A DNA stretch of 64,000 nucleotides from Candidatus Woesearchaeota archaeon (GCA_964513145.1 CAZELK010000004.1:1-64000); one strand, 5' to 3'; positions 49,759-52,657 are shown, counted from the first letter of the stretch. Numbers and translations: made by a program. The notes: a model not told the origin generated them from the letters alone.

Positions 49759-50949
49759 CTATTTCTTAGGGAGTTTGTACAAAGAATAAGGAGCGATACC
49801 TATACCGAGTTTATCAAACATATAATCACTTATTTCTCCACCAGTCATACCTTTTCTTCTAAGAATAATAAGTTTATTTCTAATTTTAGGATTTAAATCT
49901 CTAATTAAAACTCTTTTTTTGATCATTTTAGCTAATCTTTTTAGTTTTCTTTTTCTACCTTCTGCTTTTAAGAAAATATTTATTTTTAAGGCGTTTAAAA
50001 TACTTTCCTCATTTGAGACTGAAACCGCATCACCATCAGGATAAGAATGAATTTTTAGTTTTTTAAGAATTTTTATAAAAAGTTCTTTATTTGGATCACA
50101 AGCAATTTCTACTCTCCAAAAATTATGGGCTGAACCATCACCATCACATACTCCTTGCAGGAATGATATTAAAAATTTAGTTGGACAATCTAATAACCAA
50201 TTCATTCTAACATTATTGTATGTTGTCCCTTCATTTTCTTTTAATCCTAGACAAGTTTTTATTAAGAATTTTATGAATGGGGATTTTTCTGATATCCACC
50301 TATATAAGCCAAATGGTCTCCTCTTTTCTATTTTATTATAATCTTTTATTCTCTTAGCTTTTATACCTAAATAATTAAAATTTTTGGATGTAAAATTTCC
50401 TATTTTTAAACTCCAATCATATTTTTTAGTAAGTGCTAGAAGAAATTGATTAGAAAATCTATATCCTTTGGGTTTACTACTATCGCTAACCATCATTCCC
50501 AATATGTATGCAAGGGCTTTTTCTTTTAATTTATGATTCGAATTATTTTTGCCAAGTTGGTTAATTACATAAGTGATCTCTTTATAAGAATTAATTTTTA
50601 GTGAAACTTCAATATAAGAATTATAAGTATGCCCACCTTGTTTGGAATGCAATGGTAATAATTTATTTCTTTTTTTAATTTTAATATTGGGAACAGATTC
50701 GGCTAATAAGATCAAATATGGTTTACATATTAAATTATTCCTAACTTTATTGTAATCTAATCTTAATTTTTTAGCTATTTGAGCACAAGATAAACCTTTA
50801 TTTTTTAAATTTGTAACTTTGAAGTAATTTTTGCATCTTGTTCTATGGGTTGTGTAAAATTCTCCGCTTATTAAATCTTCATAAAAATATAGTTTCTTTA
50901 ATCTATTTAATAATTCTTTAATACTATTTATTTCGTTTGCACTAACCAC
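49759..50949 (-). CDS. Free-standing double-motif LAGLIDADG endonuclease with HTH-like ends
   Basis: ALAYILGMMVSDS and FLQGVCDGDGS; N-terminal LSCAQIAKKL; no intein splicing motifs. Confidence 0.8.
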   Translation of the reverse strand: MVSANEINSIKELLNRLKKLYFYEDLISGEFYTTHRTRCKNYFKVTNLKNKGLSCAQIAKKLRLDYNKVRNNLICKPYLILLAESVPNIKIKKRNKLLPLHSKQGGHTYNSYIEVSLKINSYKEITYVINQLGKNNSNHKLKEKALAYILGMMVSDSSKPKGYRFSNQFLLALTKKYDWSLKIGNFTSKNFNYLGIKAKRIKDYNKIEKRRPFGLYRWISEKSPFIKFLIKTCLGLKENEGTTYNNVRMNWLLDCPTKFLISFLQGVCDGDGSAHNFWRVEIACDPNKELFIKILKKLKIHSYPDGDAVSVSNEESILNALKINIFLKAEGRKRKLKRLAKMIKKRVLIRDLNPKIRNKLIILRRKGMTGGEISDYMFDKLGIGIAPYSLYKLPKK

Positions 50950-50952
50950 CCT

Positions 50953-51444
50953 TTATATTTTTAATTTCTTCTTGTTTTTTGGATAATTTCTCTTTTCATA
51001 TTCCAGTAATTTCTTTTTTAAAAAAACCACTTCAACAGAATTATAATTTGGAGTAAAGTCGCCTTTTCTATTAAATTGTTCTAGGCAGTGTTTTATTTCT
51101 TCAATATCAGCTAAATCTAGTTCTTCATCATTCCATAAACAAACTAATCTGTCTTCTGGATAAAAATATTTGAAATAATCATCATTAAAATGACCGCATT
51201 CAGCACAATACAAATTCAAACCAACTTCTCTTATCCAGAATTGCGGTTCTCTTTCTTTCCCCATAACTTTGAATTCTCTTTTTTCTTCTTCAATTATTCC
51301 CCAGACAATTTCAAGATAAAATAATGGCGATTTACAATAAGAACATAGTACTGGATTATCTTGTTGTGCTAAACTCCATCTTCTAGTAGATTTTATACTA
51401 TCTGCAATTAGTACTGATTTGTTTATTCTTTCAACTTCGTTCAT
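50953..51444 (-). CDS. Zn-finger hypothetical protein
   Basis: CSYC...CAEC; ATG at 51444 preferred because the listed GTG lies inside the upstream RNA stem. Confidence 0.65.
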   Translation of the reverse strand: MNEVERINKSVLIADSIKSTRRWSLAQQDNPVLCSYCKSPLFYLEIVWGIIEEEKREFKVMGKEREPQFWIREVGLNLYCAECGHFNDDYFKYFYPEDRLVCLWNDEELDLADIEEIKHCLEQFNRKGDFTPNYNSVEVVFLKKKLLEYEKRNYPKNKKKLKI

Positions 51445-51452
51445 TTTATTGT

Positions 51453-51659
51453 AATTGCCGATAGTGAAACGCACTTGTAATTTGAGCTTTGAATTTTGAG
51501 CCTTGACTATGGTTATGATAAGCTTTGAACTTTGGTCTTTTAGCCCACCAGCCCTGTCATGGGAACAAAATGATTTACTTTATTCGGATGTAGACTCAAA
51601 ACAAAATAAATCAAAGCACTATCTCGAACTATCGGCAACTTATCTATTTGATAGATAAG
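51453..51659 (-). ncRNA. Putative structured ncRNA downstream of the DIP1984-like gene
   Basis: Closing stem AGUUGCCGAUAGU / ACUAUCGGCAAUU (51628-51640 with 51453-51465), fully paired on the minus strand with one G-U; internal hairpins; seven CAA-phased heptamers. Confidence 0.6.
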
Positions 51660-51673
51660 CAAAAATTTGGCAG

Positions 51674-52132
51674 CTAAATTAATAATTCCGCAGTCCAATT
51701 AGTTATTTGTATTTTATTATCTAAATTTGTTTTTTCTACTTGTAATTTCTCGATTTCTTCTTCTATTTTTTTCTCTTCAATTAATGGGTGTTTGTCTACA
51801 TCATTTTTTTCTCTAAATAAGTAATCTCTTTTTCTCTCAAATAAATTGCCCATATCTGAAATCCTTGCTCTTAGATCGCTTATTTTTAATATTGCTTCTG
51901 CTACTGTAATATCACCATCAATAAGTCTTATGCCTAAATTAGTTTTTTGAATCTTTAATTTTAATTGCTTAATTTCTTCTGTTTTTTCATTAATTTGTTT
52001 AGTTAAATCCCTTATATCGAATGGTGGTTTTTTCTTAGTTTCAATGTAGAAGTTTTCTTTTCTTAAATTTACTAACCTAGATAATCTTGCTTTTTCTTTT
52101 TTCAACAATGACAATGCTTCACCTAATTTCAT
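51674..52132 (-). CDS. DIP1984/DUF6847-like coiled-coil protein
   Basis: MKLGEAL..K...L..L...; I.KTN...; .T.AEAI...L; LDNKIQITNW. Confidence 0.8.
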   Translation of the reverse strand: MKLGEALSLLKKEKARLSRLVNLRKENFYIETKKKPPFDIRDLTKQINEKTEEIKQLKLKIQKTNLGIRLIDGDITVAEAILKISDLRARISDMGNLFERKRDYLFREKNDVDKHPLIEEKKIEEEIEKLQVEKTNLDNKIQITNWTAELLI

Positions 52133-52191
52133 TTTAATTTTTAAAAACTAACTTATTTAAATATTTATGACGTATGTTTTTGTGGGTGCAA

Positions 52192-52401
52192 CTACACTGA
52201 TTTTTCTTTACCGTCCAAATAAGTTATAAAACATGTTCTATTATTCTCATCTTTAGCTAAATAACTGAATAATAGCTTACCTTTTTGCAGACATGACCCT
52301 ATTGCGACTAATTTGTTTATAGAAATACTAAATGTTGCTCTTTTTTGTGAAACTTTACATTTCCAGCCGATATTATCAAAAATTATTTCCATCAAATACA
52401 T
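52192..52401 (-). CDS. Small beta-rich hypothetical protein (possibly swapped-hairpin DNA binder)
   Basis: IIFDNIGWKCKVSQ...SINKLVAIG...GKLLFSYLA; fold is inferred. Confidence 0.5.
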   Translation of the reverse strand: MYLMEIIFDNIGWKCKVSQKRATFSISINKLVAIGSCLQKGKLLFSYLAKDENNRTCFITYLDGKEKSV

Positions 52402-52508
52402 AAATATAATTTAATATATAAGTGTTAGGCAGATATCTGAAATGTCCAGTAGTTTTTTGTCTAGTGAAATTAAATGAATTATATTGTTGATATAAGTCGT
52501 AATAAAAT

Positions 52509-52617
52509 CCGGAAGATTTTCGGTGTCCAGTTGGTATTTCCTGAAAAGTTTTCGGTTTAATATTTAAATAAGCCAAAAGATTTACGAAACTAAGTGTAAA
52601 AACCGGAAGATTTTCGG
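52509..52617. repeat. Four quasi-palindromic 15-mers at 32/32/30-bp spacing
   Basis: ccggaagattttcgg (52509, 52603), ctgaaaagttttcgg (52541), ccaaaagatttacga (52573). Confidence 0.7.
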
Positions 52618-52657
52618 AAGTAAAGATTATAAACTATTAAGAAATTGAAAAAGTGAC

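Follow-up and report, generated by a model that had tools for sequence, protein, structure and literature searches.

A conserved structured RNA with a heptad array follows archaeal DUF6847/DIP1984-family genes: a candidate partner of the encoded protein

Between a gene of the DUF6847/DIP1984 family and the next start codon (ATG at 51444), the genome of a Candidatus Woesearchaeota archaeon has a spacer of 229 nt, in which a first-pass annotation made from the sequence alone had drawn a structured RNA with 7-nt repeats. Does this spacer specify a conserved RNA, and if so, what might such an RNA do next to this gene? The stretch of DNA that we analysed (64,000 nt, hereafter the window) belongs to an AT-rich genome of ~1 Mb (G000) that is 98.8% complete and whose relatives are labelled Woesearchaeota, Pacearchaeota or Nanoarchaeota in public records. 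The features of the locus are collected in Table 1.

Table 1. Features of the DUF6847 locus, numbered from the first nucleotide of the window
Feature	Position	Strand	Basis or remark
ORF, 396 aa, end of cassette	49759-50949	-	No family match
Cys-rich (CxxC...CxxC) protein, 163 aa, cluster c3	50953-51444	-	Downstream of RNA
RNA core: P1, P1b, P1c, P2, small GC hairpin, heptad tract	51454-51639	-	CM R1
P1, 3' strand	51454-51465	-	Ends 10 nt before ATG of next gene
Heptad array, eight U-Y-A-A-R-G-N units	51479-51542	-	Column counts, 41 sequences
P2 hairpin	51571-51613	-	11 bp (51603-51613 with 51571-51581), 21-nt interior; CM aligns it onto family P2
P1, 5' strand	51628-51639	-	Pairs with 51454-51465
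P0 hairpin, 10 bp	51638-51660	-	Fold; 13 nt past stop codon here
DUF6847/DIP1984-family gene, 152 aa	51674-52132	-	Pfam PF20935
Small ORF, 69 aa, cluster c1	52192-52401	-	Upstream of DUF6847 gene
Repeated boxes with imperfect palindrome CCGGAAGATTTTCGG	52503-52617	.	Upstream of 69-aa ORF

A conserved structured RNA downstream of the DUF6847 gene

Folded on the minus strand, which is that of the gene, the spacer reaches -66.5 kcal/mol (z -6.07), and none of 200 shuffles was as good; the z-score of the plus strand is only -1.36. This asymmetry is the signature of G-U pairs and hence points to an RNA rather than to a DNA palindrome. The spacer had been described as non-coding and folded on the strand of the gene, which our analysis supports, and the helices named at that stage are all present, some of them displaced by one or two bases, i.e. 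the 5' hairpin, the closing stem (51628-51640 with 51453-51465, 13 bp including one G-U) and the 11-bp internal stem. The minimum-energy fold of the window pairs the heptads with the U-rich 5' half. This pairing has no support in the comparative data, and we attribute it to an 8-nt insertion in heptad 4. The fold that the family supports is the one originally drawn, with the 11-bp internal stem and an unpaired heptad tract.

A covariance model (CM R1) of 214 positions and 41 pairs, built without P0 on the consensus structure described below, gives a full-length match of 42.6 bits in the window (E ~1e-7) and delimits an RNA core of 186 nt. Full-model matches were found in 41 distinct archaeal loci. 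All 41 are on the strand of an archaeal-type DUF6847 gene and directly 3' of it; the proposed link between the RNA and this gene family is thus strict. Matches of the CM to the reverse strand are weak (best E 0.0018). In the alignment of the 41 sequences, which was fitted to the CM and inflates pairing somewhat, 94.3% of the cells are paired vs 37-50% in controls slid by 1-3 columns. Compensatory double-sided changes affect 39 of the 41 base pairs, and the covariation score is 0.484 vs 0.08-0.13 in the slid controls; the observed pairing and covariation measures were reached by none of 500 shuffles. The main stems are already present in MAFFT-only alignments, one of which, with 37 sequences, yields the 13-bp closing stem with 12 of its 13 pairs compensated. 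Compensatory changes in the closing stem are also seen in the spacers of two relatives aligned to that of the window. The expectation that this stem would be conserved with covariation among homologous loci is thus confirmed, and the stretch found in the window is a conserved structured RNA.

Stem P1 closes the RNA. It shows compensatory changes in 13 of 13 pairs, with 97% of the cells paired; its 3' strand lies 150-235 nt downstream of the 5' strand, and the sequences of the stem differ widely between loci. RNAalifold analysis of 16 typical members adds P0, P1b, P1c and the long hairpin P2, in which 12 of the 14 lower pairs and all five apical pairs have compensatory changes in the family. 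P0 is found in most loci (consensus GCUUAUCU..AGAUAAG). In almost every locus it is located at the stop codon or within 30 nt of it, starting at the first base past the stop in most homologous loci, and two of its pairs covary (e.g. UA/UG/CG and GU/AU/GC). The variable region ends in a conserved G-rich segment with a consensus of about GGGAUGUGAUGC, and the length of the RNA ranges from about 150 to 270 nt in the family. A U-rich run follows P1 in most loci other than that of the window, and transcripts may end there. An all-against-all covariation scan recovered only the modelled pairs, with no extra helices or pseudoknots.

The RNA is sporadic. It occurs in four of the 151 genomes of the order, with one copy in each (G000, G008 and two others), and the coordinates in the latter two coincide with the DUF6847 loci L052 and L063. 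In locus L095, the RNA is truncated at the end of the contig. Genome G397 has a divergent, bacterial-like DUF6847 gene without this RNA. In another locus (L085:639-760), the 5' hairpin, the P1 5' strand and P2 are kept before the sequence diverges, and the CM finds no match; this locus appears to be either a decayed copy or an assembly break.

We also searched for known RNAs. At gathering score, Rfam 15 gave no match anywhere in the window. With E-values up to 10, it gave only three chance-level matches near the element, with no SRP RNA and no RNase P RNA. ARAGORN found no tRNA. Nucleotide BLAST searches of 40 relatives returned AT-rich noise, the best match being inside a coding gene. The element is present in a single copy in its own genome, which excludes a dispersed repeat or a MITE.

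A divergent SRP RNA was considered, as the archaeal SRP model of Rfam has no match in any of the four genomes of the genus (86-99% complete). Among the other relatives, 30 of 37 have a canonical SRP RNA of about 270 nt that usually adjoins sppA, and it is found downstream of sppA in both loci inspected (L020 and L022). This identity was rejected on two grounds: the element is found sporadically and together with DUF6847, and it lacks the conserved helix-8 motifs that the SRP RNAs of the relatives have. In G000, 45 nt separate sppA from the gene that comes next (L034, G000:C1:144865-148698), and the SRP RNA of the genus may be very divergent or have moved elsewhere. The same locus harbours a tRNA gene (L034:856-982, G000:C1) that scores 47.4 bits with the Rfam tRNA model and whose anticodon region is interrupted by a 63-nt insertion, presumably an intron of the kind found in archaeal tRNAs.

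Full-text literature searches retrieved no publication on the function or an RNA partner of DIP1984/DUF6847 proteins and no paper combining 'septicolysin' with 'structured RNA'. Since there is neither an Rfam match nor a mention in the papers listed by these searches, we regard both the family of RNAs and its association with DUF6847 as undescribed.

The heptad array

The array is flanked by the variable domain on one side and by the 3' strand of P1c on the other. Among the 41 sequences, U1 and A3 are each found in 40-41 in every heptad, and G6 in 34-40, except for heptad 4 (26 of 41) and heptad 8, which has a U at this position. Position 2 is a pyrimidine, positions 4 and 5 are A-rich and position 7 is free. 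The layout is of three good heptads and a degenerate one, followed by three more good heptads and another degenerate one, so that the array can be read as two groups of three spaced A-R-G triplets. The consensus of the heptads varies from lineage to lineage; in the window, most of them read UCAAAGC.

The 7-nt periodicity is compelling only in the 41-sequence alignment. In the window itself, the 8-nt insertion in heptad 4 leaves only a weak autocorrelation at lag 7, of 27 matches in 56, a value that 114 of 2000 shuffles attained. The periodicity that the first-pass annotation had read from the window is thus clear at the level of the family and weak in the window alone. Similarly, the heptamer tract that it had placed at 51471-51534 is real, but the limits shift in the family alignment to those of Table 1: the earlier ones include the 3' strand of a stem (51471-51476) and miss the first heptads.

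No columns of the alignment covary with those of the array in the all-against-all scan, which argues that the array is conserved as a single-stranded sequence. Searching the genome of G000 with the RNA revealed no complementary heptad array.

The DUF6847 protein and the surroundings of the pair

The 152-aa protein encoded upstream of the RNA matches Pfam PF20935 (E 1e-13, 51.9 bits with a cut-off of 27, profile positions 5-141 of 141); with NCBIfam NF038048, it aligns over its full length but stays just below the cut-off of 70 (E 5.9e-18, 65.5 bits). It belongs to a divergent archaeal DUF6847 subfamily. Its matches in a language-model atlas are only to DUF6847, 'septicolysin' and DIP1984 clusters. 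The AlphaFold model (pLDDT 89.5) is a four-helix bundle with helices of 24-29 residues each. Foldseek superposes it on 3kdq_A with a TM score of 0.88 and an rmsd of 2.3 Å over 152 columns; 3KDQ is a Corynebacterium diphtheriae structure solved in 2009. The early identification of the gene as DIP1984-like is therefore upheld by both the Pfam match above gathering score and the fold. Besides 3KDQ, Foldseek found no match in the PDB with an E-value below 1, and no RNA-binding relative of the DIP1984 fold is known among the PDB fold matches.

The protein is mildly basic (pI 9.3). Archaeal and bacterial members of the family share 23-29% identity, yet an N-terminal MKLGEAL(S) and a C-terminal LDxxIQxxNW motif hardly vary across the range from DPANN archaea to GC-rich bacteria (alignment A9). 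This conservation suggests that the two chain ends (MKLGEALS and LDxxIQxxNW) may form a functional site. PF20935 proteins are encoded in five of 401 genomes of the phylum, and DUF6847 scores above cut-off in three of 41 near relatives. An alignment of five archaeal proteins retrieved 18 genome and ~35 metagenome loci of the same subfamily, with 45-58% identity. A tblastn search of phages with the archaeal protein gave no match, and neither PF20935 nor the Rfam model of RAGATH-27 (RF03100) has a match in phage T5 (AY543070).

The pair is part of a cassette. In two genomes of the same genus, which were compared for synteny at about 50% protein identity, the ArcE-like and Rieske-like flank genes are separated by no more than a membrane-protein gene. 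With these genes nearly adjacent where the cassette is missing, the 49759-52650 stretch is an accessory insertion in G000. We also inspected a 349-nt gap at the syntenic site of G003 as a possible RNA site; it contains small membrane ORFs and no RNA.

Upstream of the DUF6847 gene, the 69-aa ORF looks, by eye, like a small DNA binder of the AbrB/SpoVT type; it has no match in Pfam, NCBIfam or PADLOC. Its homologues (cluster c1, 65-85 aa) are found on the same strand upstream of the DUF6847 gene in 22 of 40 loci. The CCGGAAGATTTTCGG boxes comprise two copies with 95% identity, 94 nt apart, with degenerate copies between them, and they may represent an operator for this small DNA-binder-like protein of the cassette. 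In some loci, the small ORF and the DUF6847 gene are separated by optional inserts that code for an HTH-nucleotidyltransferase with a HEPN-like partner or for a protein that we call Bro-N-like from reading its sequence by eye, and 13 of 40 loci have a divergent winged-helix gene near the cassette; the Pfam matches behind these and similar labels of neighbours (wHTH, NTase, HEPN, etc.) are all below curated cut-offs.

The genes that follow the RNA belong to many unrelated clusters and vary from locus to locus. Various Cys-rich Zn-ribbon proteins are encoded there, on the same strand in many loci. The 163-aa protein of the window, devoid of family matches in Pfam and NCBIfam, has homologues (cluster c3) after the RNA in six loci only and is thus a variable member of the cassette. 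The 396-aa ORF gave no family match in Pfam, NCBIfam and PADLOC searches and is not conserved in the other loci. By eye, it has two LAGLIDADG-like segments and an N-terminal helix-turn-helix-like segment; a weak 16-bit match to the Cbp1 HTH was also noted. In at least three loci (L054, L056 and L100), an intact RNA is directly followed by a large gene in the opposite orientation. No PADLOC defence-system model matches the proteins of the cassette, the best E-value (0.0067) being to an unrelated candidate. The only invariant pair across the 40 loci is the DUF6847 gene and the RNA. As far as gene content and distribution can tell, the surroundings look like mobile elements and the pair like a sporadic accessory one.

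We analysed six distant DUF6847 loci that are bacterial-like by their G+C content and whose proteins have 23-29% identity with the archaeal ones. A GAGGGYGGGY-NNN-GGK motif is present in exactly one copy in L103, L105, L106, L108 and L109, on the strand of the gene and 170-235 nt past the DUF6847 stop codon. L110, an IMG/VR viral contig, contains the same stretch as L108. The GAGGGYGGGY motif was found in none of 110 other loci. L105, L106, L108 and L109 also have a stem with its 5' strand no more than about 30 nt from the stop codon. In L103, where a 7-nt periodicity is most clearly visible, no such stem could be located. The motif and the stems indicate that bacterial-like DUF6847 genes carry a second, different RNA class. 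The first-pass annotation had mentioned repeat-bearing spacers after bacterial homologues, which holds in part. There is indeed a conserved downstream element in these loci, but it is a different RNA, and repeats are clearest in L103.

The DUF6847 family is also encoded on 370 plasmid records, 341 of them from Acinetobacter and mostly small plasmids, where the protein is annotated as 'DIP1984 family protein' or, in one older record, 'septicolysin'. It is found as well in an Enterococcus phage and in Acinetobacter phage records. In the 8.7-kb Acinetobacter baumannii plasmid NZ_CP080456.1, the DIP1984 gene is followed by a gene-free gap of 322 nt (L116:1663-1984), within which a stem pairs the two ends of some 195 nt; a stretch of 325 nt, folded as a whole, gave a z-score of -2.5. 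Small Acinetobacter plasmids offer a cultivable setting in which to study the gene-RNA pairing.

Possible roles of the pair and comparison with known systems

The reading that we favour, with a probability of roughly 0.55, is that a DUF6847 oligomer reads the heptads in the way that HutP and TRAP read spaced triplets, the two forming a ribonucleoprotein. The RNA would be co-transcribed with the DUF6847/DIP1984 gene and be the dedicated partner of its product. The position of P0 at the stop codon makes it almost certain that the RNA is produced as the tail of the mRNA of the protein itself; being made as the 3' part of this mRNA would favour assembly in cis, and a terminating ribosome would have to melt P0. 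The simplest reading of an array of near-identical sites is that they are bound by repeated copies of one surface, and DUF6847 is the candidate reader because it is the only constant protein beside the RNA. The four-helix-bundle oligomer would thus bind one heptad per subunit or surface, the stems serving as a scaffold that presents the array. In the model, helices of 24-29 residues are about 40 Å long, i.e. ~ seven extended nucleotides, which makes one protomer per heptad geometrically plausible. The sporadic spread, the insertion in a variable region and the presence on plasmids and in phages suggest a function serving mobile elements, so that the ribonucleoprotein might act in defence, counter-defence or addiction rather than in host housekeeping.

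A broader proposal is that DUF6847/DIP1984 proteins and downstream heptad-bearing RNAs make up one class of ribonucleoproteins across both domains, on archaeal islands, bacterial plasmids and phages, in which a helical-bundle oligomer would measure 7-nt steps and act in conflicts between mobile elements and hosts. We advance it tentatively and consider that its odds fall somewhat short of even.

Several findings weigh against a ribonucleoprotein: no RNA-binding relative of the fold is known, the protein is no more than mildly basic, the heptads vary in consensus between lineages and have a weak periodicity in the window itself, and the cassette proteins match no defence-system model. Moreover, the strict co-occurrence of gene and RNA would also be expected of a cis-acting element in the 3' UTR. 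Such an element might govern how stable the DUF6847 mRNA is or how it is processed and would have no stable protein partner; its heptads would contribute to tertiary folding or bind a host factor. That P0 abuts the stop codon and that the RNA was never found apart from the gene would both fit. We nevertheless regard it as quite unlikely, as an RNA of 200 nt with multiple helices and eight near-invariant single-stranded repeats goes far beyond the elaboration of known 3' stabilisers. Besides, the bacterial members have retained an RNA of another kind that is just as elaborate, which speaks for co-evolution of RNA and protein.

The array could alternatively belong to a cis-regulatory leader of the HutP/TRAP type, with DUF6847 bound to the heptads controlling termination or translation of the genes that follow, in the window those of the Zn-ribbon and 396-aa proteins. 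The layout resembles that of hut, where the terminator RNA whose spaced XAG triplets are bound by HutP precedes the enzyme genes (PMC2425495). The P1 stem of the window stops just short of the next ATG, and many loci have Zn-ribbon genes on the same strand after the RNA. Still, we think this explanation unlikely: the downstream genes come from many unrelated clusters, the large genes after the intact RNAs of L054, L056 and L100 are on the opposite strand, and the covariation scan revealed no conserved alternative pairing of the terminator/antiterminator kind. In most other loci, moreover, the U-rich run after P1 is a place where transcripts may end. Control of the downstream Zn-finger and nuclease genes, which the first-pass annotation had put forward as a possibility, is thus not supported as a general role, since these genes differ between loci and can lie on the opposite strand. 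Without conservation of the downstream genes, their control is not the conserved function, although a HutP-like control is possible in individual loci such as that of the window.

The tandem repeats, the mobile-element context and the neighbouring NTase/HEPN-like pairs might also suggest a trans-acting small RNA or an RNA antitoxin, in which the heptads would base-pair with a target nucleic acid, imitate it, or keep a toxic DUF6847 protein in check as in type III systems. The hallmarks of the latter (an RNA upstream of the gene, repeats of 34-45 nt and an endoribonuclease toxin) are absent here, and the genome of G000 contains no complementary heptad array by our search; we hold this to be very unlikely. 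Finally, the stretch might act as DNA in a mobile element, as iterons, an origin or a site of recombination; iterons typically consist of short tandem repeats, and the cassette is located in a variable region. However, the stability is strand-specific and depends on G-U pairs, the reverse strand scores weakly with the CM and dozens of compensatory pair changes preserve RNA helices. This last reading is close to refuted.

The favoured reading, binding of the heptads by a DUF6847 oligomer, would have several consequences. The DIP1984 family, with a structure (3KDQ), hundreds of Acinetobacter plasmids and phages to its name, gains a candidate RNA partner. If the two bind, they would represent both a new kind of RNA-recognising fold and a new ribonucleoprotein on mobile elements in archaea and bacteria. 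In DPANN archaea, few accessory non-coding RNAs are defined by covariation, and this RNA would be one of them. With 152 aa and about 200 nt, the pair is small and lends itself directly to reconstitution in vitro.

How does this pair compare with known systems? Retrons, Ro60/Y RNA and type III toxin-antitoxin systems are, like it, often found on mobile or accessory DNA. Retrons also have a gene beside a dedicated structured RNA, but there is no reverse transcriptase among the cassette proteins of the 40 loci. Y RNAs are end-paired, and in Ro60/Y RNA systems, too, a gene adjoins such an RNA; however, no TROVE protein is encoded in the region of the window or in the related loci. These two comparisons, made in the first-pass annotation, are apt as regards a dedicated RNA beside a gene and are otherwise loose analogies, given that both reverse transcriptase and TROVE are missing. 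Like the orphan RNAs of Rfam (RAGATH-27, OLE, ROOL and GOLLD), the RNA described here is a conserved, covarying non-coding RNA recognised by comparative analysis, the difference being that none of the Rfam 15 families matches it. In type III toxin-antitoxin systems, the antitoxin RNA is encoded upstream of the toxin gene, has repeats of about 34-45 nt and partners with an endoribonuclease toxin. Our pair resembles such systems (ToxIN) in that a protein gene is adjacent to a repeat-bearing RNA, often on accessory DNA, but its RNA is downstream, its repeats are of 7 nt and no ToxN-like protein is present.

The closest parallels are with proteins that read regularly spaced triplets. TRAP, an 11-mer ring, reads (G/U)AG triplets in the trp leader of Bacillus subtilis. 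The HutP hexamer recognizes two sets of three XAG triplets with a 7-nt spacing in the hut terminator RNA, which precedes the hut enzyme genes and has cleavage sites at U498, U505 and U512 (PMC2425495). DUF6847 differs from both in being an all-helical bundle without similarity to HutP or TRAP. The array described here is inside a large closed scaffold with covarying stems, has no terminator/antiterminator alternative and is not followed by conserved genes, and its U1 and A3 are as conserved as the triplet. What it has in common with the RNAs of HutP and TRAP is the presentation of evenly spaced purine-rich triplets, here unpaired A-R-G at positions 4-6 of each heptad.
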